From NCBI GenBank assembly GCA_963782475.1, contig CAWAJW010000008.1:32671-64670 (forward strand): a stretch of 32,000 nt of DNA, written 5' to 3'. Below the pieces are notes generated by a model. That model saw nothing but the letters and a program-made list of their open reading frames with translations, did not search any database and was not told where the DNA came from. Position numbers and translations under genes: made by a program. The DNA is from an uncultured Bacteroidota bacterium (lineage in GTDB: Bacteria; Bacteroidota; Ignavibacteria; Ignavibacteriales; Ignavibacteriaceae). The stretch's first letter is position 1; every line of letters starts with the position of its first letter. Below are positions 1 through 29,621 of the stretch, one piece after another.

Positions 1-699
1 GCCGGCCCGGGAAATCCTCCGGTTTTGATTGATGAAACTGCGGATCTGGCATTAGCTGCAGCAGAAATTACGACAAGTTCAAGTTATGATAATAATGTTC
101 TTTGCATAGCAGAAAAGGAAATTTTTGTTGTTGAAACTGTCTTCGAAACTTTTATGCAAGAAATGGAAAAGGCCGGCAATATAAGATTGTCATCAAGCCA
201 AATGGATCAACTTGCTAAAAAAGCACTGGAACTTTCCGGCAGGCATTGGCTTATCGGTCGTGATTATGTAGGCCGCAATGCAAATGTTTTAGCCAAAGCA
301 ATCGGATTGGAAATTTCCGAAAAAGTTCCGCTTTTATTCGGTGAAACAGTCAAGGAACATCCGTGGGTTGTAGCTGAACAAATGACCTCCTGCATACCTG
401 TAGTTAAAGTAAAGGATTTTGAAGATGGTCTTCAGGCTTCTCTTAAAGCTGAACATGGTTTTAAGCATACTGCAAGTATTTTTACCCGGGATATGGTTCG
501 TGCTACAAAATTTACAAGAATCCTTAATTGCGATGTGCATACAATAAACGGCGGTACTTTACGCGGTGATGGCGGGGATCTCGGTGAAGGTTATTTTTCT
601 CATACTATTGCTACTCCAACCGGAGAGGGAATCTGCACTCCGTTGGATTTTGTTCGGAAGCGCAGGATAATGACATACGGCGCTTATAGGTTTGTTTAA
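1..699 (+). CDS. CoA-acylating aldehyde dehydrogenase, BMC-associated (PduP/EutE family); 5' end cut by window edge
   Basis: Frame 1 is open from nt 1 (AGPGNPPVLIDETADLALAA...). It carries the GxGNPPxxVDETAD and SSYDNNVLCIAEKE motifs of acylating ALDHs. The C-terminus RKRRIMTYGAYRFV resembles PduP/EutE ends. It lies directly upstream of the shell genes. Confidence 0.85.
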   Translation, partial: AGPGNPPVLIDETADLALAAAEITTSSSYDNNVLCIAEKEIFVVETVFETFMQEMEKAGNIRLSSSQMDQLAKKALELSGRHWLIGRDYVGRNANVLAKAIGLEISEKVPLLFGETVKEHPWVVAEQMTSCIPVVKVKDFEDGLQASLKAEHGFKHTASIFTRDMVRATKFTRILNCDVHTINGGTLRGDGGDLGEGYFSHTIATPTGEGICTPLDFVRKRRIMTYGAYRFV

Positions 700-738
700 T
701 TAGATAGAATATAGAATGATATTTAATGATTAGGAAAG

Positions 739-779
739 CATCCAATAATGTTCTTACTTTTTACTGGATGATGTTTTTT
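739..779 (+). terminator. Hairpin plus T-run between aldehyde dehydrogenase and shell genes (possible attenuator or partial terminator)
   Basis: CATCCAATAA (739-748) pairs with TTACTGGATG (761-770) with 1 mismatch and a 12-nt loop, followed by TTTTTT (774-779). The stem is weak and AT-rich. Confidence 0.3.
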
Positions 780-835
780 CAAGGGATATAAAAAAATTTA
801 GAAACAAATAGAATAATAAAATAAGGAACAAAGTT

Positions 836-1111
836 ATGGCATTAAAAAACGCAATAGGGATTCTTGAAACAAAAGGATTTGCTCCTTTAGTTCAGGGTGC
901 TGACGCTGCACTGAAAGCTGCTAATGTAGATATGATAGAATGGAGACAGGTCGGCAGCGGTTATGTCTCATTTATTGTTGAAGGAGATGTTGCCGCGGTA
1001 AGGGCTGCAATTGAAGCCGGCGCAAGCTCTGCTTCTAAGGTCGGACAGGTAGTTTCGCAGTTAATTATTCCCCGTCCGGTTGAGGATCTTGACAAAACTT
1101 TTAACAAATAA
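836..1111 (+). CDS. BMC-H hexameric shell protein (PduA/EutM type)
   Basis: 91 aa. AIGILETKGFAPLVQGADAALKAANV...GSGYVSFIVEGDVAAVRAAIEAG...IIPRP matches the canonical single BMC-domain pattern of PduA. Confidence 0.92.
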   Translation: MALKNAIGILETKGFAPLVQGADAALKAANVDMIEWRQVGSGYVSFIVEGDVAAVRAAIEAGASSASKVGQVVSQLIIPRPVEDLDKTFNK

Positions 1112-1122
1112 ATTAAATAAAA

Positions 1123-1404
1123 ATGATTTTTGCAAAAGTGATTGGGACAGTTGTATCTACCCAAAAGGATAAAAATCTCAACGGTAAAAAGCTTCTTTTG
1201 TGTAAAGAAGTAGATCATAATGGTAATCCTTTAAATTCATACCACGTTGCTGTTGATGCAGTTCAGGCAGGTGAAGGAAATTTTGTTTTACTTTCATATG
1301 GTTCATCTGCAAGAATGACAGAGGCAACAAAGGATGCACCAATTGATGCGGTTATTTTAGCAATTATTGATGATGTTCAAATGACAGTTAAAACCAAGAG
1401 TTAA
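1123..1404 (+). CDS. BMC-P pentameric vertex protein (EutN/CcmL/PduN family), paralog 1
   Basis: 93 aa. MIFAKVIGTVVSTQKD...LLLCKEV...AVDAVQAGEGNFVLL...PIDAVILAIIDD is typical of the EutN/CcmL fold. Confidence 0.9.
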   Translation: MIFAKVIGTVVSTQKDKNLNGKKLLLCKEVDHNGNPLNSYHVAVDAVQAGEGNFVLLSYGSSARMTEATKDAPIDAVILAIIDDVQMTVKTKS

Positions 1405-1406
1405 TT

Positions 1407-1670
1407 ATGAAGCTCGGAAAAGTAATCGGTGTGGTCTGGTCTTCAAAAAAGGTTAATGAAATTTATGGATGCCGGATGTTTATTCTTCAGCCTGTTTCAA
1501 CTAAAGGGAAGAACATAGGTTATCCTTTAGTCGTTGCTGATCCTCAGGATATAGCTTCAGGCGGAGATAATGTAGTTTATGTAACAGGTACAGATGCTGT
1601 TCAGGCTTTTGATTCAGGCTTTGCGCCGATAAATGCAAGTATAGTAGCGTTAGTAGATGAAATCAGTTGA
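1407..1670 (+). CDS. BMC-P vertex protein, paralog 2
   Basis: 87 aa. MKLGKVIGVVWSSKK...MFILQPV...VVADPQDIASGGDNVVYVTG...INASIVALVDEI. There is a 2-nt gap from paralog 1. Confidence 0.85.
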   Translation: MKLGKVIGVVWSSKKVNEIYGCRMFILQPVSTKGKNIGYPLVVADPQDIASGGDNVVYVTGTDAVQAFDSGFAPINASIVALVDEIS

Positions 1671-1710
1671 TAACCTAAATGTCATATTGAATGAACGAAT
1701 GAGAGTATGT

Positions 1711-1773
1711 TTGAATGTTCCTGTAATGGACTTGTAAACCTGAACTTGAACCTGAACTTCATCATTGATCAAT
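1711..1773. repeat. TGAAC/GAACTT micro-repeat block, copy A (related to 27993-28057)
   Basis: AACCTGAACTTG and AACCTGAACTTC form a tandem 12-mer (1737-1760), with TGAAC at 6-nt phasing x3. The block ends in ...CATCATTGATCAAT. Copy B has a very similar core: TGAACTTGAAC[C/T]TGAACTT..ATT(G)GATCAAT. Confidence 0.5.
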
Positions 1774-1806
1774 GAGTTTTGTTTTCAATTAGAAATCATA
1801 GAGCAT

Positions 1807-2082
1807 ATGTTTTTAGCCCGGGTAGAGAAAAAAGTAATTTCAAGTATAAAACATAAGTCTTACTGCGGTAAAACAGTTTTTGTAGTACAGCCTGTATCTC
1901 CGGATGGGACTGCTAAAGGTGAAGAATGGATTGCAATGGATTATGTAGGAGCCGGTATAGGTGATATTGTGGTATGCGGGGGAGCCCCCGGAGTAGCTAA
2001 AACGGTTTTTAATCTGGAACTGGCTCCTATAAGAACATTAATTATGGCGATTGTCGATAAAATTGATTATCGCGATATCTAA
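1807..2082 (+). CDS. BMC-P vertex protein, paralog 3
   Basis: The ATG at 1807 gives MFLARVEKKVISSIKHKSY..KTVFVVQPV...AMDYVGAGIGDIVVCGG...IRTLIMAIVDKI, which aligns with the N-termini of the other two BMC-P proteins. The ORF-track start at 1765 would add a non-homologous extension. Confidence 0.8.
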   Translation: MFLARVEKKVISSIKHKSYCGKTVFVVQPVSPDGTAKGEEWIAMDYVGAGIGDIVVCGGAPGVAKTVFNLELAPIRTLIMAIVDKIDYRDI

Positions 2083-2092
2083 AAAAATTTTA

Positions 2093-3393
2093 ATGACATT
2101 AAACGATATTAAAGATTTAGGAATTATTGGTGCCGGCGGTGCCGGATTCCCGACACATATCAAACTGGATTCCAATCCCGATACAGTTATTATGAATGCC
2201 GCTGAATGTGAACCGCTGCTTCATAAAGATATGCAGTTATTGCTTAATTATCCGGATGAAATTTTAAATGGCTTTGAAATTGTCATATCCCTTACACGTG
2301 CAAAACAAGGTATAATCGGAATAAAAGAAAAACATAAAGAAGAAATTAAACTGCTTAAATCAAAAATAAGAAGTAATATTAAATTAATTGAAGTAGATGA
2401 TGTGTACCCTGCCGGGGATGAGATAACCCTGATATATTTAACAACCAAAAGACTTGTGCAGCCGGGAGCTTTACCGGTTTCAGCCGGCTGTATTGTTCAA
2501 AATGTTGAAACGCTTTATAACATCGGGATAAATAAATCAGTCACTGATAAATTTATTTCAGTTGCAGGTGCTGTTGAAAATCCATCAACCGTAAGAGTTC
2601 CTGTCGGGATTTCATACAAGGATATTCTATCTAAGTTTAAAATTACTGTTCCGGATTATGTTATAAGATCCGGCGGTCTTATGATGGGTATTTTAGAAGA
2701 TGATTTGAATAATGTAATTTCAAAACGTACAGGGGCAATAATAGTTTTACCTTCCGATCATTATTGTGTTACAATGTATAAGAGGTTTTCTACCGAACAT
2801 GCTACGGATATAATAGCAAAAGCCGGGTGCGATCAATGCTGCTTCTGCACTGAATTTTGCCCAAGATATTTATTAGGTCAGCCCGTTAGACCTGAAACCG
2901 CAATGCGGAACCGGATGTTCACAAGGGAAGATTTTCCCCTTTTAGATCCGGGTAATTTTTCCTGCTGCGAATGCAATCTTTGTACTATGTATGCCTGCCC
3001 TGAAGGTTTGGATCCAAAAGGAGCAGCCGTAATAGAAAAAAGACTGGCGAAAGAACAGCAATTAAAATGGAACGGCAGTGATATTGCGGTGCATCCAATG
3101 TTTGAATACAGAAAAGTACCTACTCAAAAATTAATGCAGAGATTAGACGTCATGATGTTCAGGGACGAAGGCCCGTTGGAAGAATATCAGCTTTAATCCT
3201 TCGATGGTTCGCATTCCGCTGGATCAACATATCGGTAACACCTGCGGAACCTATTGTAAAACCGGGTGATGTTGTAGATAAATATGATTTGATTGGTAAA
3301 TCCTCGGGAAAAATATCTTCCAATGTTCACGCTTCTATAGGTGGAAAAGTTGTATCAATAAATAAAAATGGAATTATTATCCAGAGGAATTAA
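2093..3393 (+). CDS. PduS-like / RnfC-like NAD(P)H-flavin Fe-S oxidoreductase. The main ORF is 2093-3196. The C-terminal barrel-sandwich domain (3204-3393) is reachable only through two +1 frame corrections.
   Basis: GIIGAGGAGFPTHIKL is the Complex1_51K/RnfC nucleotide-binding motif. It has an SLBB-like middle region and two ferredoxin motifs, CDQCCFCTEFCP and CCECNLCTMYACP. After the TAA at 3194-3196, the other two frames read NPSMVRIPLDQHIG and then TPAEPIVKPGDVVDKYDLIGK..SSNVHASIGGKVVSI, which is the RnfC barrel-sandwich hybrid pattern. This tail ends in a TAATG overlap with the next gene. Confidence 0.8.
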
Positions 3394-3962
3394 TGGAAAG
3401 AAATGCTATTGGAATAATTGAACTCGCCAGTATTTATAAAGGTTTTGAAGTTCAGGACCAGGTATTAAAATCAGCTAATGTGGAAAAATTAATTGCACGG
3501 ACGATTTGTTCAGGCAAATATTTTATGGTAGTAAGGGGTAATGTTGCCGATGTTGAAACTGCAATTAATGTTGCAAGAGAAGTGGGCGGATTCTCAGTTG
3601 TAAATTTAACAACTATTCCTAACTTGGATCCGCGGATATTTCCTGCAATCGCCGGAACAACAACAATACAAATTGATAATCTTAATACCAAAGTTAATGC
3701 AATGCTTATTATCGAAACTTTTTCTGTTGTCTCTGCAATAAAAGCCGCTGATTATGCTGCAAAGGAGGCAAACCTTAATATTTTAAGGATTCATGTTGCG
3801 ATGGCTGTGGGAGGGAAAGGATTTGTAGTAATTACCGGGGATATAGATGCACTTGAAGCCGCTGTTCAGCCGGCAATTGAATATATTAAGCAGGATGGAA
3901 TGCTGGCAGGTTATGTTATTATTAAAAATCCTCATAAAGAAGTTTTAAAAGAATTAATCTGA
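3393..3962 (+). CDS. BMC-T tandem-domain shell protein, PduT-like (candidate Fe-S pore)
   Basis: 189 aa with two BMC domains. AIGIIELASIYKGFEVQDQVLKSANVEKLIARTICSGKYF parallels PduT [39 protein letters not shown], including the Cys (here C39) that ligates the [4Fe-4S] cluster in PduT. Confidence 0.85.
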   Translation: MERNAIGIIELASIYKGFEVQDQVLKSANVEKLIARTICSGKYFMVVRGNVADVETAINVAREVGGFSVVNLTTIPNLDPRIFPAIAGTTTIQIDNLNTKVNAMLIIETFSVVSAIKAADYAAKEANLNILRIHVAMAVGGKGFVVITGDIDALEAAVQPAIEYIKQDGMLAGYVIIKNPHKEVLKELI

Positions 3963-4028
3963 TATATAATACTTCAATAATAATTAGACAGCTTTAATAG
4001 AATTTAAATAATCTAACGGAGAATAATT

Positions 4029-4832
4029 ATGAATAGTGAATGGGAAATTAAGCAGCTAATGGTTGAAATCGGGCGAAGAATATGGACACGCCAATATGTT
4101 GCTGCAAATGACGGAAATATTTCTGTAAGGCTCGACAGTGATGAAATTTTAACAACTCCTACCGGGGTAAGCAAAGGTTTTATGACTACCGATATGATAA
4201 TTAAAGTTGACGCAAAGGGGAAAGTTATTACCGGGAATGCAAATTATCGGCCATCCAGTGAACTTAAAATGCATATGGAAGTTTATAGAGAACGTCCGGA
4301 TATTAATTCAGTTGTCCATGCTCATCCTACTTATGCAACAAGTTTTGCCGTTGCCGGCATACCGTTAAACAAATGTGTATTGCCTGAAGCAATCCTTGTT
4401 ATTGGTTCTGTCCCGATTGCAAAATATGGTTTGCCTTCGACAATGGAAATTCCGGATTCAATAAGAGAATATATAAAAAATTCGGAAGCGATTTTATTGG
4501 AAAATCATGGCGCATTACTTTGGGCAGCGATTTGATTAAATGCATATCATAAAATGGAAACTCTTGAGCATACAGCCAGTATTGTTTGGAAAGCTATTCA
4601 GCTCGGCAATGTTAATGTACTGCCTGAATACGAAAGAGACCGGTTAATGGCTTTACGGGACAATTATGGTCTTAGGGGAAGGGTAACAACATGTGATGCT
4701 ACACCTATGCCTAGTAATGAGCATTCTATGGTTGAAGCAAGTGAAATAAAAAATTATTCTTCAGAAAATGTTTCAGAAAAAACTATCAAAGAAATTACCG
4801 AAAAAGTGCTTGCAAAACTTAAGCTGAGCTGA
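4029..4832 (+). CDS. Class II (FucA/RhaD-type) aldolase with a C-terminal extension. It is interrupted by an in-frame TGA at 4533-4535 (fragments 4029-4535 and 4554-4832).
   Basis: Motifs seen: NDGNISVRL, PTGVSKG, SSELKMHMEVY, VVHAHPTYATSFA, LLENHGA and ETLEHTA. Between about 4515 and 4540 an alternative frame reads (I/L)TLGSDLI, restoring the conserved HGxxTxGxxL motif. Confidence 0.85.
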
Positions 4833-4880
4833 AATTAACTATTTTGTCGAATATTATAAGAGGGCTTTAAATTAGACAAT

Positions 4881-6051
4881 ATGAAAATATTAATTGCAAA
4901 CCCGGGGAGCACTTCATATAAGTGCAAGTTATACGATGCATCAAATATGGATATTTTATTCCGGGCAGCAGTAGAAAGAATAGGGGATAGATGGGGGGAA
5001 TTATTCATACAATTTTCTTAATGAAACTGAAAAATTATCCCGGCAAAAAATTCCTGATAACCTGGCAGCAATCAAATTAACTTTGGATACTTTAAGTGAG
5101 CGATATTCAATTGAAGATTTGGCCGCAGTCGGATTTAAAACAGTACATGCGAGAGGGATTACAGGATGTGTTGAGCTTAAAGATGATGTGCTGCAAGCTA
5201 TGTTGGAATACCGCATGCTGGCACCTGTTCATACGGATGTATACCTGACAGCAATTTCCATTTTTAAAAAATTGTTACTTCCGATTCCATTAATCGGATT
5301 GTTTGAAACCTATTTTCATAAAAATATTCCGCCCGAAGCATATTATATATGGAATCCCTTATGAATATTATGAAAAATACGGGATTCGTAAATATGGATT
5401 TCATGGTGCATCACACCGGTATATCGGGGAAAGAGCAAAAGAATTATTTAATGCAAATAAAGTTATTTCATGCCACCTCGGCGGGAGCTCATCTGTTTGT
5501 GCAATAAAAGAGGCTGATCAATAGATACTTCAATGGGAATGAGCCCTCAAAGCGGGTTGTTAAATGCAAAAAGGGTTGGCGATTTTGATCCATTTGCACT
5601 ATTATATCTAATGGATAAGGAAAATATTTCCATTGAGAAAACTGCAGAAATTCTTATGTCTAACGGCGGTTTATTGGGAATTTCAGGAATAAGCGGAGAC
5701 TTTAGAGATATTGAAGAAAATATGTTAAAAGGCGATATAAGGGCAAAGCTTGCATTTAAGACTTTTGCTTATTATGTAAAGCGTTATATTGGTGAATATA
5801 TGGTGATACTTAATAGTGCCGATTCTATTGTATTTACTGCCGGTGCCGGCCAGAATTCACCGCTTCTTCGTAAAGAAATTATTTCAAATATGGAGAACCT
5901 GGGGATAATGATCGATGACAAACTAAATAATTCAAATCCTAAAGAGGGATTAATCTCTCATCAAAATTCGAAGATAAAAATTGCTGTAATTCCAACTAAT
6001 GAGGAATTGGTTGTTGCAAATGAAGTTAAAAAATTTCTGCACATTAAATAA
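4881..6051 (+). CDS. ackA: Acetate/propionate kinase family protein (BMC-associated acyl-phosphate kinase). It has three frame breaks (fragments 4881-5021, about 4984-5364, 5303-5524 and 5533-6051).
   Basis: Motifs seen: [25 protein letters not shown]..., [70 protein letters not shown]...[16 protein letters not shown] and [11 protein letters not shown]. The order and spacing match acetate kinase once the frames are joined. Confidence 0.85.
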
Positions 6052-6137: not shown

Positions 6138-7256
6138 ATGACTAATGAAATAAAAAAACAGTCAATTAATTTTTTAAGGGGTGTACCGGCCGAAGAATCT
6201 TTAGTTCAGCTTATTCCTCATGCATCCGAAGGATATAAAAAAGCAATTCAGCGGTATGGTACGGATGTACTTCAATATGGACATTTTTCAGGTTTTAAAC
6301 CTTTACGGAATTTGCTAGCTAAACAATATAATGTTAATCCTGAAAGAGTTGTCGCAGGGAATGGGGGATTAGAAGTTATTTCATTATTCTTTAAATCACT
6401 TCCATTACAGAGCAACATAATTGTTGAAGAAATTAGTTATGATCGGGTTCTTTTGGATGCAAAAAGATATGGTCATAATTTGATTGGTGTAACTCTGACA
6501 GAAGAGGGAATTGATCTGAAAAAATTTGAAAATATAATACGTAAAGGAAATATAAAAGCATTTTATGGAATTCCTTATCACCAGAATCCTTCCGGTATTA
6601 ATTATACCGTTGAAAACCGTAAAGCTGTTGAAAAGATTTGTGAAGAAAATGATATTTACTGTATATGGGATATATGCTATAAAGATCTCCGGTACGACGG
6701 AAAGTTGAATAATAATATAGAGATTTCCGAATGGGGACCCATCCTGACAAGCTCATTTACAAAAACCATCTCACCCGGTACTAAGTGCGGTTATATGATT
6801 GTACCTGAAAATTTTATTGCACATTTTACAAAGATAATATCTAATACGCGAATTAATCCAAATCTACCGACACAGGCATTTATAGCTGATTTTATAGAAT
6901 CAGGCGAATATGAAAAATTTCTTCTCTACCTGCGCGGGTTATATAAACCCAGAATGGATGCCCTGAATAATGCAATCCGGAATAACTTGCCGGAATCATC
7001 TAAAGTTGAAATAACCGGCGGATTTTTTGCTACCCTTACCTTTAAAAATATTTTTGAGGACCGGCAAAAAGCTTTTTTGGAAGATGCCGTAAAAGAAGGT
7101 GTTAACATTGCTCCTGCCTGGGATGCAGTTGCACCTAATTTTAAAGATGAAATTCAAAAAAAAGGCCTTTTTGTAAGATTAACATTTCCAGCCTATCAGC
7201 CTGGCGAAATTGAATGGGGTATAGCAAAACTGAAAAAGGTTGCCGATTTATATTAA
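6138..7256 (+). CDS. PLP-dependent aminotransferase, class I/II fold (specificity unknown)
   Basis: 372 aa. It has INFLRGVP, GNGGLEVISL, YGIPYHQNPSG and SSFTKTISPGTKCGYM, the last being the PLP-lysine motif SxxK...G.+.G. Confidence 0.7.
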   Translation: MTNEIKKQSINFLRGVPAEESLVQLIPHASEGYKKAIQRYGTDVLQYGHFSGFKPLRNLLAKQYNVNPERVVAGNGGLEVISLFFKSLPLQSNIIVEEISYDRVLLDAKRYGHNLIGVTLTEEGIDLKKFENIIRKGNIKAFYGIPYHQNPSGINYTVENRKAVEKICEENDIYCIWDICYKDLRYDGKLNNNIEISEWGPILTSSFTKTISPGTKCGYMIVPENFIAHFTKIISNTRINPNLPTQAFIADFIESGEYEKFLLYLRGLYKPRMDALNNAIRNNLPESSKVEITGGFFATLTFKNIFEDRQKAFLEDAVKEGVNIAPAWDAVAPNFKDEIQKKGLFVRLTFPAYQPGEIEWGIAKLKKVADLY

Positions 7257-7449: not shown

Positions 7450-9261
7450 ATGAAGAATGTAAACTCTATAACTAAAAACCCTTCCATTCGTTTGTATGGC
7501 AGTCTGCCTAAAATAGGGATTCGCCCTGTTATTGATGGAAGAAGAAAAGGGGTAAGAGAATCTCTTGAAGATCAAACTATGCGGATGGCAAAAACTGTTA
7601 AGAATTTTTTTGAAACGAATTTAAATCATTCTAACGGAACACCAGTCGAATGTATAATTGCCGATACATGCATAGGCGGTGTTGCAGAAGCAGCTCAAGC
7701 AGCGGAAAAATTTTCCAGAGAAGGTGCAGGAGTATCGTTAACAGTTACGCCATGCTGGTGTTATGGAACCGAAGTAATGGATTCCGATCCGTTTTTACCA
7801 AAAGCTGTCTGGGGATTTAATGGCACTGAACGCCCCGGTGCTGTTTATCTTGCAGCTGCGCTTGCAGGTTATAGTCAGAAGGGTCTGCCGGCTTTTGGAA
7901 TTTACGGAGAAAATGTCCAGGATAAAAATGATTTCTCAATTCCAGCAGATGTTCAGGAAAAGCTTTTAATATTTGCAAAAGCCGGTCTTGCTGTCGCAGA
8001 AATGAAAGGGAAATCTTATTTATCAATTGGTTCAGTTTCGATGGGGATCGCCGGCTCCGTTGTTGATCCGGATTTTTTTAATGATTATCTGGGAATGCGG
8101 AATGAATCGGTTGATATGAGTGAAATTATTCGAAGAATAGAGGAAAAAATTTATGATGAAGAAGAATATAAAAGAGCATTAAATTGGACTAAAAAATATT
8201 GTAAAGAAGGTGAGGATGTTAATAAAGCTAAATCTTCAAGGGAAAGAAAAAATTATGAATGGGAAACAGTTGTAAAAATGTCTCTAATTGTCCGTGATTT
8301 AATGATTGGAAATTCCAAGCTTAATGAATTAGGATTTGAGGAAGAAGCTTTAGGACATAACGCAATTGCCGCAGGTTTTCAGGGGCAGCGCCAATGGACA
8401 GATCACTTTCCTAATGGTGATTTTATGGAGGCAATACTTAATTCTTCATTTGACTGGAATGGAATCCGGGAGCCATTCATGGTAGCAACTGAAAATGACA
8501 GTTTAAATGGCGCTTCAATGCTGTTTGGTCATTTGTTATCAGATACAGCTCAAATTTTTTCTGATGTAAGAACATATTGGAGCCCTTTCTCCGTAAAAAG
8601 AGTGACAGGAAAAAATTTGAAAGGTAAAGCTGCCAATGGTATTATTCATTTAATTAATTCCGGTTCATCTGCACTTGATGGAACGGGTAAACAAAGAAGA
8701 AACGGCAAACCTGCTATGAAACCGTTTTGGGAAATTAAGGAAAATGAAGTCAATGCTTGTCTAAAAGCCACTGAATGGTGGCCGGCGGAATTGGAATATT
8801 TTAGAGGCGGCGGCTTCTCATCTCAATTTTTAACCGAAGGAGACATGCCGGTTACTATTTCCCGGCTTAATTTGGTTAAAGGATTAGGACCTGCTTTACA
8901 AATTGCTGAAGGTTATACTGTTGAACTTCCCGAAGATGTCCACGCAATATTAAATAGAAGGACAAGCCCCGGATGGCCGACAACATGGTTTGCTCCTATC
9001 CTAACAGGAAAAGATGCATTTACCAGCGTCTATTCGGTTATGGCTAACTGGGGCGCTAATCATTGTGCTGTGAGCTACGGACATATTGGTGATAAGCTAA
9101 TTACTCTTGCTTCTATGCTTAGGATCCCTGTTAATATGCATAATGTTTCCCGGGAAAGAATATATAGACCGAGTGCCTGGAATGGATTTGGAACCCAAGA
9201 TCTTGAAGGTGCAGATTTCAGAGCATGTAAAAATTTCGGACCAATTTATAACAGATCGTAA
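7450..9261 (+). CDS. fucI: L-fucose isomerase
   Basis: 603 aa, collinear with E. coli FucI as I recall it: [110 protein letters not shown] and YRPSAW. Confidence 0.95.
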
Positions 9262-11421: not shown

Positions 11422-12888
11422 ATGTCTATCTCAAAATTTCTTGCTGTAGATTTAGGAGCTGAAAGCGGCCGTGTAATTGTAGGAATTCTTGAAAATAAAA
11501 AATTTTATTTTGAAGAAATCCATCGCTTTCCGAACAAACAAGTTAATAAAGAAGGGGGTCTATTCTGGGATGTTCCGAATTTATTCAGGGAAATAAAAAC
11601 AGGATTATCCCTTGCAGTAAAAAATGGGCATAAGGATATTGAATCGATTGGAATTGATACATGGGGCGTTGATTTCGGTTTACTTGGAAAAAATGATCAA
11701 TTAATAGAGATGCCTCATACTTATCGAGATAACAGGACTAATGGAATTCCCGACAAGGTGTTTGAGAAAATTTCTCCTGCTGATATCTATAACAAAACAG
11801 GGATCCAATTTATGGATATTAACTCCCTGTATCAATTATACAGCTTAAAAATTTCAAATGAATCGGTTTTAAAGGGATCCGCTAGACTTTTATTTATGCC
11901 TGATTTATTCAACTTTTTATTAACGGGAGAAAAGAACTCAGAATATACAATTGCTTCAACCTCTCAATTTTTAAATGCAAAAACAAAGGAATTTGATTTA
12001 GATATTTTCTCTGTTCTCGAATTACCCATTAATATTATGGCGCCGATAATAAAGCCCGGAACCGTAGTTGGTAAACTGCTCCCCGATGTTGCGGCGGAAA
12101 CAGGATTAGGGATTATCGATGTAATTGCAGTCGGCTGCCATGATACTGCCAGTGCAGTTGCTGCAATTCCCTGCCGGGGTGACGACTGGGCCTATCTAAG
12201 TTCCGGAACATGGTCATTGCTTGGTATAGAAATCAATAAACCCCTTACTGATTTTAAATATAAAGATTTTACTAATGAGGGGGGAGTTAATAGTACGATC
12301 AGGTTCCTGCAAAATATTTCCGGCTTATGGTTTCTTCAAGAGCTTAAAAAGAGCTGGGAAAAAAAAGGAGACCATTACAGTTATGACGAGATATCTAATT
12401 TAGCTGAAAAATCAAAATCTTTTGTCTCAATTATTGATCCTGAGGATAAGCTTTTTATTAATCCGCCGGATATGATTGAAGCTATTAACCAATATTGTTT
12501 TAAGACTAAACAAAGGATGCCCCAAACACATGGTGAATATTCGCGTTCCATATTGGAAAGTCTTGCTTTAAAATACAAAACTGTTTTGAAAAAGATAGAA
12601 AAAATCTCGAATAAAAAGATTAATAAGCTTCATATAGTTGGAGGCGGTTCACAAAATGAACTGCTAAATCAGCTGGCTGCAGATGCAACCGGCAAACAAG
12701 TGATTGCGGGACCTGTGGAAGCAACGGCTTTGGGGAATATCATTGTACAGGCAATTACAAGAGGTAAAATCGAATCATATGAGAAAGCAAGAGAAATTGT
12801 ATCGGAATCTTTTCCCCTGAAATTATATGAACCCAGGGATCAGGAAAGCTGGGACAATATTTCTATAGAATCATTTATAATTGATTAA
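11422..12888 (+). CDS. rhaB: Rhamnulokinase-family (FGGY) sugar kinase, a likely L-rhamnulose/L-fuculose kinase
   Basis: 488 aa, collinear with E. coli RhaB: AVDLGAESGRV, EIHRFPN, SIGIDTWGVDFGLL, YRD.RTNG, GIQFM..NSLYQL, LFMPDLFN, HDTASAV, YLSSGTWSL, TNEGG, GLW.LQE, HIVGGGSQN.LLNQL.ADA and VIAGPVEATALGN. Confidence 0.88.
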   Translation: MSISKFLAVDLGAESGRVIVGILENKKFYFEEIHRFPNKQVNKEGGLFWDVPNLFREIKTGLSLAVKNGHKDIESIGIDTWGVDFGLLGKNDQLIEMPHTYRDNRTNGIPDKVFEKISPADIYNKTGIQFMDINSLYQLYSLKISNESVLKGSARLLFMPDLFNFLLTGEKNSEYTIASTSQFLNAKTKEFDLDIFSVLELPINIMAPIIKPGTVVGKLLPDVAAETGLGIIDVIAVGCHDTASAVAAIPCRGDDWAYLSSGTWSLLGIEINKPLTDFKYKDFTNEGGVNSTIRFLQNISGLWFLQELKKSWEKKGDHYSYDEISNLAEKSKSFVSIIDPEDKLFINPPDMIEAINQYCFKTKQRMPQTHGEYSRSILESLALKYKTVLKKIEKISNKKINKLHIVGGGSQNELLNQLAADATGKQVIAGPVEATALGNIIVQAITRGKIESYEKAREIVSESFPLKLYEPRDQESWDNISIESFIID

Positions 12889-13004
12889 AAAAGTTCGGAA
12901 TCAATATAAAATAATATTCTGCATCCCTTTTTATATCAATTATATTTTTTTCTCTATGTAAACTGAAAAAAATCCTGGAACAGAATTAAAAAAAGGATAC
13001 TAAT

Positions 13005-14348
13005 ATGGCTGTAACAAAATTGTTCAAAGCAGAAAACGGGAAGAGTTATCTCTTTACATTTATGCTTGTAAGTACATTGTTTTTATTGTGGGGAGTTTGT
13101 AACGGAATGATAGACGTGATGGACAAGCATTTCCAGGATTTTTTACATTTATCAAAAGCACAATCAGCCTGGGTACAATTTGCACATTATCTGGGTTATC
13201 TTTTAATGGCTCTTCCTGCGAGCTGGCTGGCGCATAAGCTCGGATATAAAGGTGGTATTATTGCAGGATTGCTTCTAGTTTCTGTCGGTGGGTTTTGGTT
13301 TATTCCCGCCACACACATAGCTTCATTCTGGGCTTTTCTTCTGGGCGTTTGTGTAATAGCAATGGGATTAACGGTTTTGGAAACCGTTGCAAATCCTTAT
13401 ACGACAGTACTTGGTCCAAAAGAATATGCGGCTACCCGGATAAATTTTGCCCAGGCTTTTAACGGTGTAGGATGGATCTTCGGTCCAATAGTTGGCGGCA
13501 TATTTTTTTATTCAAATCAGGGAGCTGTAGTTGCTCAAAAACAATTATATATTCCATATCTAGCAATTGCTCTTATTGTTCTGGTAATGGCAACAGTTTT
13601 TTATTTCTCAAATCTTCCCGACCTTAATACCGAAGATGAATACAATATGAATAGTGCAGATACAAAGGGGATTAAACGTTCGATATGGTCGCACAAACAT
13701 TTTGTGGGAGGGGTAGCTTCGCAGTTTTTATATGTCGCGGCTCAGGCAGGTATTTTTAGTTTCTTTATTAATTATATTGTAGAAGAGCTCCCTTCAATCT
13801 CGAAAGGATTAGCAGACAGCTGGCTATTTGCAAACCGTACAATTCTGAAGAATGGTGCTTTTTTTGTAAATGAAAAAGGAGCGACATTTTTATTAGGCAC
13901 GATCGCATTTCCGCTGTTTTTAATTGGTCGTGCCAGCGGTGCTGCAATTCTTAGAAAATTAAAGGCTCACCGGGTACTCGGCACTTATGCATTGGTTAAT
14001 GTAATACTATGCGGGATCGTTGTGCTTAAGCTTGGCTGGATTTCGGTTAGTGCAGTGTTTCTCAGCTTTTTGTTTATGTCAATTATGTATCCTACTATAT
14101 TTACCTTAGGTATTTATGGATTAGGCGAACAGGCAAAAAAAGCATCGGGTTTTATAGTAATGGCAATAATAGGCGGAGCGATTATGCCGAAAATTATGGG
14201 TTACCTGGGAGATGTATACAATATGTCTGCCGGTTTCCTAATGCCTTTAGTCTGCTTTGCTATAATTGCTGTATATGGATTTAGCTGGACAAAATTGAGC
14301 AAATCAGAAGGTGTTGTCGGCCTTGCTGCAGTCAAGGCAGGTCATTAA
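13005..14348 (+). CDS. fucP: L-fucose:H+ symporter (MFS, FucP family)
   Basis: 447 aa, about 12 TM segments. FLLWGV.NG..DV, LETVANPYTTVLGP, NFAQAFNG.G, FLYVAAQ, YPTIFTLG and FIVMAIIGGAI.P parallel E. coli FucP. Confidence 0.88.
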   Translation: MAVTKLFKAENGKSYLFTFMLVSTLFLLWGVCNGMIDVMDKHFQDFLHLSKAQSAWVQFAHYLGYLLMALPASWLAHKLGYKGGIIAGLLLVSVGGFWFIPATHIASFWAFLLGVCVIAMGLTVLETVANPYTTVLGPKEYAATRINFAQAFNGVGWIFGPIVGGIFFYSNQGAVVAQKQLYIPYLAIALIVLVMATVFYFSNLPDLNTEDEYNMNSADTKGIKRSIWSHKHFVGGVASQFLYVAAQAGIFSFFINYIVEELPSISKGLADSWLFANRTILKNGAFFVNEKGATFLLGTIAFPLFLIGRASGAAILRKLKAHRVLGTYALVNVILCGIVVLKLGWISVSAVFLSFLFMSIMYPTIFTLGIYGLGEQAKKASGFIVMAIIGGAIMPKIMGYLGDVYNMSAGFLMPLVCFAIIAVYGFSWTKLSKSEGVVGLAAVKAGH

Positions 14349-14536: not shown

Positions 14537-15541
14537 ATGTCAACAATATTTGATATTGCAAAAAAAGCAGAAGTATCAATTATAACTGTTTCAAGGCTGC
14601 TTAATAATCCTAAAATGGTCAGTGCACGCACTGCCGAAAAAATTTTCCGGGTAATGGAAGAATTAAATTACCAGCCAAGCCAAATTGCAAGATCATTAGT
14701 TAAAAAGCAGACCAATACTATCGGCGTTATTATGTCTGATATTAAAAATACTTTTTTTAACAGCTGGTTCCGTATTGTTGAAGATTATGCAAGCAAACAT
14801 GGATATAATTTACTCTTATGCAACACAGACGAAAGTCCCGCAAGAGAAATGAAGTATGTAAAGCTGCTCCAGTCTCAAAGGGTTGATGGCTTAATAATAA
14901 TTCCCTGTTCGGAAAAATCAGTAGACTACTTATTAAAAAGCGGCATAAATTTTATTCTGGTAGATAGAGTTTTAAGAGAGCAAAAAGCCAGCTTTGTTTC
15001 AACTGATCATTATCTTGGTGCTTATGAAGCTGCGGAATACTTAATTAAATTGGGTCATACAAAAATTGCAGTTCTAAAAGGGGGAGGGGCTCTTTTCCCT
15101 GATATTGAAAGATATTCAGGGTTTCAAGATGCTATGAAAAAATATAGTATTGATATAGAAGATAAATATATATTAGATTGTGAATTTGATGAAATGCAGG
15201 GTTATAGTGCAACATTGAAATTGATGGGAATGAATTCAAAACCAACTGCAATTTTTTCTTTCAACAGTAAAATGATGATTGGTTCCATAAGGGCAGTACA
15301 AAAATTGGGACTGACAATTCCCGATAATATTTCATTAATCTGCTTTGATCAAATTCCCGGCTACGAGATCTTTCAGCCGAGGATCACATGTATAACACAG
15401 CCGATAAAATCTTTGGGTGAAAATTCCATTGCAGCTCTAATAGATAAGATAAAAAACAAGGAGAAATCCAAGCGGACTAAAATAATTTTAAAACCCGAAT
15501 TAATTTCAGGGGATTCTTGTAAAAGCTTAATAAAACCATGA
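14537..15541 (+). CDS. LacI-family transcriptional regulator
   Basis: N-terminal HTH MSTIFDIAKKAEVSIITVSRLLNNP. It has a periplasmic-binding-protein-like sugar-binding core (GVIMSDIKNTFF, VDGLIIIP, VLVDR). Confidence 0.9.
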   Translation: MSTIFDIAKKAEVSIITVSRLLNNPKMVSARTAEKIFRVMEELNYQPSQIARSLVKKQTNTIGVIMSDIKNTFFNSWFRIVEDYASKHGYNLLLCNTDESPAREMKYVKLLQSQRVDGLIIIPCSEKSVDYLLKSGINFILVDRVLREQKASFVSTDHYLGAYEAAEYLIKLGHTKIAVLKGGGALFPDIERYSGFQDAMKKYSIDIEDKYILDCEFDEMQGYSATLKLMGMNSKPTAIFSFNSKMMIGSIRAVQKLGLTIPDNISLICFDQIPGYEIFQPRITCITQPIKSLGENSIAALIDKIKNKEKSKRTKIILKPELISGDSCKSLIKP

Positions 15542-15998
15542 AACTATGAGTATAATTATATTCATTATGTTATTTGTGATCCTGCTAAAGCCGATTGCTT
15601 ATTACTTTTATAGACAATCCCGAATTTTGTAAAAAAAATGATAATAGGATATTTTTAAGCTGTTTTTCAGAATATATATTGCTCAAATAGTTTTGTATTC
15701 TAAAATAAAATTACTTAGCTTTACAAAAAGTTTTTAAGGCTTTATGGAAAGTCATTTTTACGATATATCAAAAGAAGCGGCAAATTTTTCTGCTTTTTTT
15801 TATCGGAAATCATGATTAATTTATATTTTCTTTTACCATGATAAAATATACTACTTGAAAGTAGGGTTTAAAAGCCATCATTAAGAAGAGCAGCATTTCG
15901 AATTTTAGGATTCAATTTAAAATAACATTTCATTTTACTTCTTCGGTATATCCACTAAGTATTTTGAATTAATAAAAACAAAAAAAAGGAAAGGTATC

Positions 15999-16349
15999 AT
16001 GAATATTTTCATCGGAAATTTAGCCAAGGATGTTACTGAGGATGATCTGCAAAATTTATTTTCCGAATTTGGAGCCGTAAGGAATGTTAAAGTAATAAAA
16101 GATTTATTTTCAGGTGAATCAAAAGGATTTGGTTTCCTTGAGATGCCGGGATTAGCAGAAGCTCAAAAAGCAATAAGTGAATTAAACACAAGGGATCTAA
16201 AAGGAAAGAAAATAGCTGTAAACGAAGCCAGGCCTCGGAACGATAAAAGAAGACCGGGCGGCGGCGGCGGCGGGGGAAGAGGCGGAAATAGAGGCGGCAG
16301 CGGCGGCGGAAATCGCGGCGGCGGCAGCGGCGGAAGAAGAAGCTGGTAA
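15999..16349 (+). CDS. RRM-domain RNA-binding protein with a Gly/Arg-rich (RGG) tail
   Basis: MNIFIGNLAKDVTEDDL is RNP2 and KGFGFLEM is RNP1. The tail is RRPGGGGGGGRGGNRGGSGGGNRGGGSGGRRSW. There is a strong RBS (AAAGGAAAGG) upstream. Confidence 0.9.
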   Translation: MNIFIGNLAKDVTEDDLQNLFSEFGAVRNVKVIKDLFSGESKGFGFLEMPGLAEAQKAISELNTRDLKGKKIAVNEARPRNDKRRPGGGGGGGRGGNRGGSGGGNRGGGSGGRRSW

Positions 16350-16401
16350 AATTTCTCTTATCTTCTGTTAAAAACCTAAAACTGACTCTTTCTATTGTAA
16401 A

Positions 16402-16527
16402 AGGCTGACCAAAAATAGCACAAACTGCGGGAACAATTCCAGTTACGCTTAATGTATGCTATTAAGAGGAATAAATTGAATATAAAATAAAAGTTAATAT
16501 TTTATAATATTATTTTTTGGTCAGCCT
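16402..16527. other. 126-bp element bounded by a perfect 14-bp inverted repeat with nested hairpins (candidate structured RNA or MITE-like element)
   Basis: AGGCTGACCAAAAA (16402-16415) and TTTTTGGTCAGCCT (16514-16527) are exact reverse complements. Inside, TATAAAATA (16481-16489) pairs with TATTTTATA (16498-16506), and TAGCA (16416-16420) pairs with TGCTA (16457-16461). Confidence 0.4.
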
Positions 16528-16599
16528 CTTCTTTCACCTCTTTAAACTTTTCCCAATACTTTAGAGAAAATATTTTTAAAAATATTATTTATTAAACTC

Positions 16600-16628
16600 T
16601 TGACAAGTGCACATTCGTTCACTATATT
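16600..16628 (+). promoter_or_regulatory. Near-consensus sigma-70 promoter of the lexA operon
   Basis: TTGACA (16600-16605), a 17-nt spacer, then TATATT (16623-16628), about 25 nt upstream of the lexA ATG. Confidence 0.6.
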
Positions 16629-16638
16629 TGTAGTGAAC
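16617..16638. promoter_or_regulatory. Candidate LexA operator (SOS box) overlapping the -10 element
   Basis: GTTCACTA (16617-16624) and TAGTGAAC (16631-16638) are perfect 8-bp inverted arms with a 6-nt spacer, i.e. GTTCAC-N10-GTGAAC. Autoregulation of lexA is the norm. Confidence 0.45.
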
Positions 16639-16652
16639 AATTGAGCACTATA

Positions 16653-17297
16653 ATGAAAAATCAATTAACCGAACGACAGCAGGAAATCCTTTCCTTTATT
16701 TCACAATTCCGCGAAATTAGCGGCTATCCGCCTACTTTAAGAGAAATAGGTAAAAAGTTTGACATATCCTCAACATTTGGTGTAAAAAGACATCTTGATG
16801 CATTGGTAAAAAAAGGTTATTTGACTATAGAAAGTTATGCCAGCAGGGGTATTAGTTTCGTTCATAATATTGTTTCGGAAGGGACTATAAATTACAGCGG
16901 GGAAGATGAATTCAGAAAAATACCGATTGTCGGCAGGGTAGCTGCCGGTTCTCCTATTCTGGCCATTGAGAATATTGAAGGAAGCGTTGTTATAGATAAT
17001 TCTTTTATGAAAAGGTCGGATGACTGCTTTGCCCTGAAAGTTAAAGGTGATAGTATGATCAATGCAGGGATATTTGAAGGAGACCTTGTTATTGTTTCAC
17101 CAAGTAAGGAATCGGTTAATGGGGATACTATTGTAGCACGTCTAAATGATGAAGTTACAGTAAAAACTTTCGAGAAGAAAAAAAATAAAATCAGACTGAT
17201 TCCTGAGAATGATAACTACAAGCCGATTGAAGTAGATGATAAAAAAGAATTTTCAATAATCGGGAAAGTAGTTGGAGTAATCAGGTGGTTTAACTAG
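16653..17297 (+). CDS. lexA: LexA repressor (S24 peptidase family)
   Basis: The N-terminal winged HTH is LTERQQEILSFI...GYPPTLREIGKKF. It has the Ala-Gly cleavage site in GRVAAGSP, the Ser nucleophile in KGDSM and the Lys in EVTVKTF. The ATG at 16653 is preferred over the TTG at 16641. Confidence 0.92.
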   Translation: MKNQLTERQQEILSFISQFREISGYPPTLREIGKKFDISSTFGVKRHLDALVKKGYLTIESYASRGISFVHNIVSEGTINYSGEDEFRKIPIVGRVAAGSPILAIENIEGSVVIDNSFMKRSDDCFALKVKGDSMINAGIFEGDLVIVSPSKESVNGDTIVARLNDEVTVKTFEKKKNKIRLIPENDNYKPIEVDDKKEFSIIGKVVGVIRWFN

Positions 17298-17309
17298 AAA
17301 GAGGTTTAT

Positions 17310-17558
17310 ATGAAATCAGAAATTTTTTCAAGCGCAATTTACAACCGTAATACAATTAAGTTTTTGTATTTATTAAATGAGGTTACAATTGATCCCTATT
17401 TTATTTCTCAGGATAAATCGGGGAAAAAGATTATTTATGGAAAAACATATAACTCAAGTGAGATAAAAAAATTTGAATTTGATAAAATCGTAAATATAAG
17501 AGTGCTGAGAAAAAACAAATTTTCACCGATTATCCCCATCATTGCTCAAATGAACTAA
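17310..17558 (+). CDS. Small stand-alone WYL-like domain protein (82 aa), co-operonic with lexA
   Basis: There is a 12-nt gap after lexA, with the RBS AAGAGG. SSAIYNRNTIKFLYLLNEVTIDPYFISQDKSGKKIIYGKTYNSSEIKKFEFDKIVNIRVLRKNKF follows the WYL-domain pattern (l+F.Y....R.v.P..l....g.WYL.g......+.F+ld+I..v.vL...F), with IIY in place of WYL. Confidence 0.55.
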   Translation: MKSEIFSSAIYNRNTIKFLYLLNEVTIDPYFISQDKSGKKIIYGKTYNSSEIKKFEFDKIVNIRVLRKNKFSPIIPIIAQMN

Positions 17559-17574
17559 AGATGTGAGGTATATA

Positions 17575-18006
17575 ATGATGAACACAGTAAAAAGAAGAAA
17601 TATAGATTTGTTAATAGAAGAATTTTGGAAATTAGGTTATTTAACGGTCAGCCGTAAATTCGGAACTTATCTTCCGGAACCTTCAAAAGTAGGCAAATTT
17701 GAAGTTGATATAGTAGCACGGCAGAGAAAGAATTATGCGATAGGCATTACCTTAAATTTTTCTGATCTCAATGATCCTTCCTTGATAGATAAACTAAATT
17801 ATCTTGCTACAAGGCAAACCAGGTACACAAATAAAAGAGTGATATTATTTGTAGGTATATCTAAAGATTTGTTTAAAAATATGAGAGCTTTAATTGATAC
17901 GTTAAATCCTGAAGTTAAAAATAATATAAAATTATTTGAAATTATTGATAGATCAATTATTCCGAATAGGAGATCATTGAAAAAAGAAAAAGTTCTTTTC
18001 TCATAA
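17575..18006 (+). CDS. Hypothetical protein (143 aa) with a degenerate PD-(D/E)xK/YraN-like motif, third gene of the lexA operon
   Basis: The RBS GAGGT lies 5 nt upstream of the ATG at 17575. GKFEVDIVARQRKNYAIGITL resembles GEIDLIA....lvfVEVK of UPF0102/YraN-type nuclease folds, but the E-x-K is absent. I recognise no other motifs. Confidence 0.5.
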   Translation: MMNTVKRRNIDLLIEEFWKLGYLTVSRKFGTYLPEPSKVGKFEVDIVARQRKNYAIGITLNFSDLNDPSLIDKLNYLATRQTRYTNKRVILFVGISKDLFKNMRALIDTLNPEVKNNIKLFEIIDRSIIPNRRSLKKEKVLFS

Positions 18007-18228
18007 TTATAGGATTATTTAATGGAACAGATTCTCTTATTCAGAGCAGCATTTTTTGCAAATTACGATGATTTTTGATGATTTATTCTAATTTAGAGAT
18101 GAATATCCATCCTTATTAATAGAGTTGCATTTTCTCTATTATTTTTCCTAACTCCGTTTTTACCTTTTATTATAAAATTCCTTCTTGCTATTTTTACACC
18201 GGTATAATTTAAAGAGTATTAACAATTC

Positions 18229-18257
18229 TTGACATTAAATTTACATAAGGGTAATTT
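18229..18257 (+). promoter_or_regulatory. Sigma-70-type promoter candidate upstream of uppS
   Basis: TTGACA (18229-18234), a 17-nt spacer, then TAATTT (18252-18257). Confidence 0.4.
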
Positions 18258-18286
18258 TACATGTTTTATCAATTTTGGAATAGAAT

Positions 18287-28057: not shown

Positions 28058-28330
28058 ATTACAATTTATATTTCTACTCTTTATATATTTTTTCTTCCTA
28101 ATAAATTTTAATTTGCAGTTAGCGTTTCGGAATTTTTTTTGACTGTATACTATTCAACTTAATTCTTTTTTTTGTTAAGCATTTTAATATTTTAATTTTA
28201 GAATTTAGTAAAAAATAAATAGTTTGAATGATCAGATTATATCTTTGAAGTCTGGGAACCCGAAATGAATAAATTTTGCAGAATGAAATTAGCCAAAGAA
28301 TATTTGAAAGAGTCTTTGATCGGCTTACAT

Positions 28331-29585: not shown

Positions 29586-29621
29586 TTGGCTTGTTTTTGC
29601 TCTTTTTTTGTGAGATTTGAG

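Follow-up and report, generated by a model that had tools for sequence, protein, structure and literature searches.

The window analyzed here is a stretch of 32,000 nt (positions 32,671 to 64,670 of contig CAWAJW010000008.1) from an uncultured Bacteroidota bacterium of the Ignavibacteriaceae, with a G+C content of ~35%. It opens inside an operon for a bacterial microcompartment (BMC), of which it contains only the 3' two-thirds, and continues with genes for the use of L-fucose. A first-pass annotation of the sequence had described this gene string, and open reading frame (ORF) listing, translation and Pfam analysis place all of it where it was reported. The identities given from the aldehyde dehydrogenase to the acetate kinase are correct (by Pfam; for the acetate kinase by tblastn to L001, a reference relative contig whose PduS-like protein is 86% identical to that of the window). 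What had been overlooked are seven frame-disrupting insertions or deletions (indels) in the genes for the PduS-like protein, the aldolase and the acetate kinase. We read the locus as a metabolosome operon of the catalogued type MIC4, joined to an L-fucose module. The NADH formed by its aldehyde dehydrogenase would be re-oxidized by a PduS-like NADH dehydrogenase (MNdh) and a shell protein with an iron-sulfur cluster (BMC-T^SE), and the indels would be consensus errors. We give this combined reading a probability of roughly three in four. The genes of the operon are as follows.

1-699, plus strand: CoA-acylating aldehyde dehydrogenase (ALDH), C-terminal 232 aa (residues ~244-475); Pfam Aldedh; 94% identity to the 475-aa ALDH of L001
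836-1111, plus strand: BMC-H shell hexamer protein, 91 aa; Pfam BMC, 95.5 bits; 96% identity to L001
1123-1404, plus strand: BMC-P pentamer protein 1, 93 aa; Pfam EutN_CcmL, 104 bits
1407-1670, plus strand: BMC-P pentamer protein 2, 87 aa; Pfam EutN_CcmL, 65 bits
1807-2082, plus strand: BMC-P pentamer protein 3, 91 aa; Pfam EutN_CcmL, 70 bits; aligns over residues 1-91 with EutN3 of L001
2093-3393, plus strand: PduS-like protein, predicted NADH dehydrogenase (MNdh); Complex1_51K, SLBB, two 4Fe-4S motifs, C-terminal RnfC_N
3393-3962, plus strand: PduT-type tandem BMC-T (BMC-T^SE), intact; Pfam BMC in two stretches; pore Cys in TICSGK
4029-4832, plus strand: class II aldolase of the fuculose/rhamnulose-1-phosphate aldolase type; Pfam Aldolase_II, 149 bits (4029-4535)
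4881-6051, plus strand: acetate/propionate-family kinase (ackA), 389 aa once corrected; tblastn match to the PF00871 protein of L001, residues 1-389

The ALDH scores 246 bits against NCBIfam NF011927 (cut-off 403 bits), because the gene is only a fragment in the window. Its catalytic-Cys region (NNVLCIAEKE) is readable in the translation, while its N-terminus, with a putative encapsulation peptide, falls upstream of the window. The aldolase has a C-terminal extension of ~50 aa with an amphipathic helix at its end, which is a probable encapsulation peptide. The third BMC-P gene starts at the ATG at 1807, not at the TTG at 1765. The spacer that separates it from the second BMC-P gene is non-coding (136 nt, 1671-1806) and has a counterpart of 155 nt in L001; in two other relatives (L083, L084) the two genes abut or overlap. 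Homologs of AckA are all ~389 aa long and carry PF00871, and the corrected protein of the window matches PF00871 proteins only.

Relatives were found by a scan of species-representative genomes, which gave 80 loci (the best match is 88% identical). In 45 of these, one per species-level genome, genes for the ALDH, the PduS-like protein and AckA occur in this order. These core loci span the Ignavibacteria, Kryptoniota, Calditrichota, KSB1/Zhuqueibacterota and a few others. L001 covers the complete operon. Its upstream half reads DeoR, phosphotransacylase (PTAC, PduL), BMC-P, two small proteins, BMC-H, BMC-H and ALDH (475 aa). This is followed by BMC-H, three BMC-P, the PduS-like protein (432 aa), BMC-T (189 aa), aldolase (265 aa) and AckA (389 aa), and then by an aminotransferase, fucI, a fucosidase, an FGGY kinase and an MFS protein. 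A PTAC (PF06130) is encoded upstream in L001, L003, L004, L017 and ~40 further relatives, among them all of the closest ones. Since the window starts inside the operon, PduL is probably not missing, and its reported lack would be an artefact of the window edge. The other reported absence holds. No alcohol dehydrogenase was detected by Pfam/domain annotation in the 32-kb window or within ±10 kb in three Pfam-annotated relatives, and a gene of the Zn alcohol dehydrogenase family was found among the clustered flanking ORFs in only 3 of the 45 loci, outside the core. What this analysis itself shows are the identities of the genes, their domain architecture, the conserved synteny and the lack of an alcohol dehydrogenase.

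Two further observations concern the shell region. Nearly all MIC4-type loci encode a conserved protein of ~100 aa without a Pfam hit, located after the extra BMC-P and before the first BMC-H (30-85% identity; 6225-6527 in L001); the corresponding site lies upstream of the window. A BMC-H on a 1.1-kb Logan contig is 95% identical to that of the window; it belongs to a relative, not to the same strain.

The gene set corresponds to a locus type that has already been catalogued. According to Sutter et al. 2021 (Nat Commun, Supplementary Data 2), the enzymes of MIC4 are an AldDh, a PTAC, a pfam00596 aldolase and a pfam00871 acetate kinase. Its shell includes a BMC-P triplet and sometimes an additional BMC-P, and PduS/PduT with a pore Cys are listed too. 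The type is classed there as a metabolosome with an incomplete core, and its members include Melioribacter roseus (MROS_0101-0104), Ignavibacteria metagenome-assembled genomes (MAGs), candidate division KSB1 and Calditrichaeota. The window contains the AldDh, the pfam00596 aldolase, the pfam00871 kinase and the BMC-P triplet (three EutN_CcmL genes, 1123-2082), as well as a PduS homolog beside a PduT-type BMC-T^S with the conserved pore cysteine. The locus is assigned to MIC4 from its gene composition and order, which match the MIC4 entry, and from the inclusion of Ignavibacteria in that entry. On these grounds the locus is an ordinary further member of a catalogued type, and its architecture is already known. 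It had been presented as PVM-like, i.e., as resembling the organelle of Planctomycetes and Verrucomicrobia (PVM), and as new, with the proviso that a catalogue entry of the same architecture would remove the novelty. MIC4 is such an entry. The three BMC-P genes, which had been taken as a PVM hallmark, do not discriminate, as triplets occur not only in MIC4 and other MIC types but also in SPU, FRAG, ACI and further types (Sutter et al. 2021).

The PduS-like protein and the BMC-T next to it form the electron-transfer pair of the locus. The motifs GGAGFPT, CDQCCFCTEFCP, CCECNLCTMYACP and RTICSGK are all found in the translations of the window, as the first-pass annotation had noted for GGAGFPT, the two 4Fe-4S motifs and RTICSGK; CDQCCFCTEFCP and CCECNLCTMYACP are of the CxxCxxC...CP type. 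The domains of the PduS-like protein are Complex1_51K (148 bits), Fer4_17 (36 bits), a weak SLBB (17 bits, below cut-off) and RnfC_N (40 bits). This is the four-domain set of MNdh with a C-terminal RnfC_N, the latter being in frame only after removal of two inserted bases. As written, translation from the ATG ends at 3196, which is 197 nt short of the BMC-T start, and the ORF is devoid of an in-frame RnfC_N, a domain that follows in two other frames. The TAATG that had been described as coupling the two genes does exist as an overlap with the BMC-T start (3391-3395), but it belongs to the RnfC_N frame, which is different from the frame of the main PduS-like ORF. When corrected, the protein aligns with RnfC (7zc6_C) in two parts, residues 372-422 with RnfC 33-83 and residues 3-303 with RnfC 124-415, which corresponds to the circular permutation described for MNdh. 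There are thousands of homologs. The closest are uniformly 432 aa long with a C-terminal RnfC_N, and they come from MAGs of Ignavibacteriaceae, of "Bacteroidota"-labelled organisms and of Calditrichota.

The BMC-T matches the PduT structures 3pac and 3n79 over its full length (E~1e-35), and its Cys is aligned to the pore Cys of PduT. It is encoded directly beside the MNdh gene, and this pore Cys is aligned with the cluster-ligating Cys of PduT. The motif reads CSGK in 63 related loci, among them satellite pairs of Planctomycetota, and CPGK in 10. Pairs of a PduS-like and a BMC-T gene without other core genes within ±10 kb were observed in L009, L015, L038 and L055-L068, which include Planctomycetota MAGs. 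In line with this, PduS/T are described as an occasional feature of PVM, found mainly in satellite loci (PMC11626177).

A function for this pair has been proposed by Sutter et al. 2024 (PNAS, PMC11626177), who renamed PduS as MNdh and its partner BMC-T as BMC-T^SE. They found MNdh in numerous BMC types without B12 use, PVM and MIC among them, and counted 361 loci with PduS/T but without an alcohol dehydrogenase. In their proposal, which explicitly covers such loci, lumenal NADH is re-oxidized and the electrons exit via the Fe-S cluster of the shell. In vitro support came from the Clostridium botulinum GRM1 pair, which was studied by assays, EPR, voltammetry and footprinting. The electron route shown for these proteins, and for these only, leads from NADH oxidation via FMN and 2x[4Fe-4S] to the [4Fe-4S] of the shell. 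NAD+ regeneration by PduS/PduT through the shell had also been suggested for the window. The direction of this suggestion was right, but its novelty fails against the 2024 publication (PMC11626177). By analogy with that work, NAD+ recycling via MNdh/BMC-T^SE is now the expected reading for this locus, already published rather than new.

Three genes of the window are frame-disrupted, namely the 3' end of the PduS-like gene, the aldolase gene and ackA. The seven indels each concern a single base, and all lie within 3186-5517.

PduS-like gene, plus strand: one base inserted at ~3186 and one at ~3236-3238; the last 65 codons are out of frame
aldolase gene, plus strand: one base missing at ~4515-4518 and one inserted at ~4534-4540
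ackA, plus strand: a G inserted at ~4990, an A inserted at ~5345 and a G missing at ~5516; the gene is spread over three frames

To locate the sites, the DNA was aligned to that of an intact relative and then scanned site by site; the insertion at ~4534-4540 rests on manual reading and on the alignment to the intact relative. An in-frame TGA in the aldolase gene (4533-4535) sits in a stretch of six shifted codons between the two compensating indels. When the seven 1-nt indels are undone, stop-free ORFs of 432, 266 and 389 aa result, while the relatives have 432, 265-266 and ~389 aa. The corrected PduS-like protein, aldolase and AckA differ at 0 of 150, 0 of 96 and 0 of 121 columns that are at least 95% conserved in 39-53 relatives. 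Taken together, all 367 highly conserved residues are retained (intact control lineages have 0-2 differences). The dN/dS values of the three corrected genes against four relatives are 0.07-0.10, like those of their intact neighbors.

Some other explanations for the disrupted frames were considered and rejected. For ackA, a nonsense mutation from Trp to TGA need not be assumed, as insertion of one G at ~5516 gives a stop-free KEAGSID. An alternative code, selenocysteine and programmed frameshifting do not apply, as the TGA is within a shifted stretch, the seven sites have no common motif and the feature is absent in ~50 relatives. Recombination or a mosaic structure behind the indel cluster does not fit the nucleotide identity to four relatives, which is flat (~80-87%) across the region.

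Frameshifts are also found elsewhere in the window. In bamA (19076-21587), a single frameshift at ~21100 (CTT[A]TTTAAT) leaves 677 + 141 aa, compared to 836 aa in a cluster of at least 90% identity. As bamA is an essential gene, this suggests that the contig contains indel errors from assembly. The yceD gene (29586-30129) is split into ORFs of 94 and 91 aa in different frames, while its cluster mates have 168 aa. A sensor-like ORF (28265-29287), with 340 aa where a cluster mate has 407 aa, is perhaps truncated too. The truncated products are singletons that occur in this one 362-kb contig only. Core genes are split in 3 of 13 loci from long-read Microflora Danica (MFD) MAGs, compared to 1 of the 67 others. 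Frameshift-split core genes were seen in L060 (MFD00032.bin.1.149), which has four (PduS-like, aldolase, AckA, FGGY), in L004 (BMC-T) and in L027 (AckA), so that apparent pseudogenes of the operon are a recurrent feature of long-read MAGs. The unchanged conserved residues and dN/dS, the restriction to 1-nt lesions, and the shifts in bamA and yceD all argue for an artefact. It is thus likely that the seven indels are consensus errors of a long-read metagenome assembly and not biology. The three "truncated" proteins that were deposited for the contig are then probably assembly artefacts, which calls for caution in annotation.

Downstream of ackA, the window continues as follows.

6138-7256, plus strand: PLP-dependent aminotransferase-fold protein, MocR C-terminal-domain-like; best NCBIfam matches far below cut-off
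7450-9261, plus strand: L-fucose isomerase FucI; NCBIfam equivalogs above cut-off; 90% identity to L001
9279-11330, plus strand: GH29 alpha-L-fucosidase; 83% identity to an L001 protein with PF01120 Alpha_L_fucos
11422-12888, plus strand: FGGY sugar kinase, rhamnulokinase-like; NCBIfam TIGR02627, 519 bits (cut-off 528 bits)
13005-14348, plus strand: L-fucose:H+ symporter FucP; NCBIfam TIGR00885, 292 bits (cut-off 280 bits); Pfam MFS_1
14537-15541, plus strand: LacI-family regulator; Pfam LacI and Peripla_BP

The genes fucI, fucosidase, rhaB-like kinase, fucP and lacI are thus present as annotated, but they do not come directly after ackA, as the aminotransferase-like gene (6138-7256) intervenes. 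This gene, at its position between ackA and fucI, occurs only in the window and in its two or three closest relatives.

The prior assignment as a fucose-linked, lactaldehyde-type organelle with a class II aldolase is borne out by the Aldolase_II match (149 bits), by the matches of fucI and fucP above their NCBIfam cut-offs and by the GH29 fucosidase. The substrate, the products, the encapsulation and the in vivo acceptor are proposed here from gene content and from PVM precedent. The fucosidase, FucP, FucI and the FGGY kinase, which is presumed to act as a fuculokinase in this locus, would supply L-fuculose-1-phosphate. The encapsulated class II aldolase would cleave it inside the shell into dihydroxyacetone phosphate and L-lactaldehyde. 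The acylating ALDH would convert L-lactaldehyde to lactyl-CoA with formation of NADH, the PTAC (PduL, presumably encoded upstream of the window) would convert lactyl-CoA to lactyl-phosphate, and the acetate kinase paralog would convert the latter to lactate, yielding one ATP. MNdh, docked on the lumenal face of the PduT-type trimer, would re-oxidize the NADH, and the electrons would pass the 4Fe-4S cluster in the trimer pore to an acceptor outside the shell.

The genes that flank the related loci fit into this scheme. A LutB-like gene (LUD + Fer4) is the commonest flanking gene (18 of 45 loci), RhaA is found in 8 and the lactate racemase LarA in 5. In three KSB1-type loci, a FAD-linked oxidase (GlcD/D-LDH-like) is encoded inside the core operon. 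The LutB-like, LarA and FAD-linked oxidase neighbors support lactate as the product of the organelle. Flank coordinates are 17469-19943 (L044), 2149-3483 (L045), 11920-13329 (L046), 2563-4308 (L060), 15754-21299 (L083) and 15385-18142 (L084). L083 carries an Aldolase_II+adh_short fusion. Most core members have RhaA and a more distant FGGY kinase instead of fucI, so that rhamnose is probably the commoner substrate. The core would then probably serve fucose in the sub-lineage of the window and rhamnose in others.

Several points weigh against the combined reading. The seven indels fall within 2.3 kb; the adjoining 3.2 kb and 8.8 kb are free of them, and the other 18 kb contain 2-3. With such strong clustering, uniform error fails as an explanation. 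Several of the insertions split a dinucleotide, unlike classical homopolymer errors. The indels affect only cargo or accessory genes, and the five shell genes are spared, including the BMC-T gene in their midst. That the window comes from a long-read metagenome assembly is inferred from its nearest relatives and from database provenance, and a same-species copy of ackA was not found in the databases searched, the best AckA match being 84% identical. With respect to the mechanism, the pore motif is CSGK (TICSGK, 3495-3512), not the CP(G/S)K of the MNdh paper. The MNdh activity data are for the Clostridium botulinum GRM1 pair, not for MIC4 or any aldolase-type BMC (PMC11626177). Finally, a cytosolic FucO-type reductase may be encoded elsewhere in the genome.

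The alternative that survives best is that the disruptions are real. The lineage would very recently have inactivated the aldolase, the acetate kinase and the RnfC_N part of the PduS-like protein while keeping the shell, so that the locus would encode a decaying microcompartment. The clustering of the indels (3186-5517), which spares BMC-H, the three BMC-P and BMC-T, speaks for such a loss. Enzyme loss also has a precedent in the FRAG1 loci, which have a shell only, in some cases with PduS/T, and which are common in Ignavibacteria (Sutter et al. 2021). We nevertheless consider this alternative unlikely. Neutral decay with seven indels should bring substitutions too, but none of the 367 conserved residues is altered and dN/dS is unchanged. 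Only 1-nt events are found, with no larger deletion and no insertion sequence element, and the same type of lesion is present in the essential bamA. The genes fucI, kinase and fucP are intact and, without the aldolase, would feed a dead end at fuculose-1-phosphate; an intact isomerase, kinase and permease combined with a dead aldolase would be harmful. Somewhat less likely still is the specific scenario of genuine indels in a population caught just after knocking out the cargo side (aldolase, kinase and the shell-docking end of MNdh), with five intact shell genes. If true, it would provide a snapshot of how the shell-only FRAG1-type loci that are common in the phylum arise.

A doubtful alternative, less probable than gene decay, assigns another redox job to the PduS-like protein, such as reducing corrinoids, reductively activating or repairing a cargo enzyme, or bringing electrons into the lumen. 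PduS was reportedly first characterized as a cob(II)alamin reductase, which is its classical role. The context for this role is lacking, as a B12-dependent diol or ethanolamine lyase was found neither in the window nor in the 45 related loci, and a B12-dependent or glycyl-radical enzyme is not encoded in or near any of the 45 loci. The demonstration of MNdh activity for a single GRM1 pair (PMC11626177) leaves some room for other functions. In this locus, however, ALDH is the sole NAD-linked core enzyme and there is no alcohol dehydrogenase, and the PduS/PduT pair accompanies AldDh throughout the catalogue (PMC11626177). Re-oxidation of the ALDH-linked NADH thus remains the preferred function.

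As the MIC4 architecture (2021) and the mechanism of MNdh/BMC-T^SE (2024, PMC11626177) are already in the literature, the discovery value of the locus is small. Its contribution is that the flanking genes give MIC4 a concrete functional assignment, from a deoxyhexose via lactaldehyde to lactate and ATP, with the reducing power exported through the shell. This assignment is suggested by fucI, fucosidase, fucP and kinase in the window, and by RhaA, the rhamnulokinase-like kinase and the LutB-like, LarA and FAD-linked oxidase genes elsewhere. MIC4 also has cultured carriers, Melioribacter roseus and Rosettibacter firmus.

The weakest alternative, that the locus is PVM-like (GRM5-derived) or a true PVM organelle, is very improbable: it shares class II aldolase, ALDH, acetate kinase and a regulator of the DeoR type with PVM, and the LoClass taxonomy filed the Melioribacter roseus locus as "PVM-like" (Axen et al. 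2014), but the 2021 catalogue moved this and other Ignavibacteria loci to MIC4 and lists the PVMlike shell clades as Firmicutes and GRM5-related (Sutter et al. 2021), PduS/T of PVM are mostly in satellite loci (PMC11626177), and the host is neither a Planctomycete nor a Verrucomicrobium. The close homologs are all from Ignavibacteria, Bacteroidota-labelled, Calditrichota or KSB1 MAGs. The shell gene numbers (one BMC-H and three BMC-P in the window; three BMC-H and four BMC-P in the full relatives) do not fit a PVM-like locus either.

Compared to the PVM organelle (Erbilgin et al. 2014, as far as summarized by Axen et al. 2014), the locus shares the route from a class II aldolase via lactaldehyde to ALDH, PTAC and acetate kinase. 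By the same summary, the BMC-P triplet and the DeoR regulator are common features as well (Axen et al. 2014). The two differ in phylum and gene order, and probably in shell/AldDh clades. For NAD+ recycling, the PVM organelle is described in that summary as using an enzyme of the lactate/malate dehydrogenase type (Axen et al. 2014), which is missing in the window and in its annotated relatives. The PduS-PduT proteins of the Salmonella/Citrobacter Pdu locus are homologous to those of the window, with the cluster-ligating Cys aligned, but that locus has a B12-dependent diol dehydratase and the alcohol dehydrogenase PduQ, neither of which is in the locus of the window. With the MNdh/BMC-T^SE module, the window shares the four-domain MNdh with circularly permuted RnfC_N, the adjacent pore-Cys BMC-T, the co-occurrence with AldDh, and the lack of an alcohol dehydrogenase in the locus, a class counted as 361 cases (PMC11626177). 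It differs in having CSGK instead of CP(G/S)K and in that the gene as written has no in-frame RnfC_N. The closest likeness is with MIC4 itself. AldDh, aldolase, acetate kinase, BMC-P triplet, PduS/PduT-type pair and Ignavibacteria host are the same, the closest relatives of the window add the PTAC, the extra BMC-P and two further BMC-H upstream, and the 1-nt indels in three genes set the window apart. Within MIC4, the core is followed in the sub-lineage of the window by fucI, GH29 fucosidase, kinase and fucP, whereas in most of the other members a rhamnulokinase-like kinase, RhaA and Lut genes take their place.

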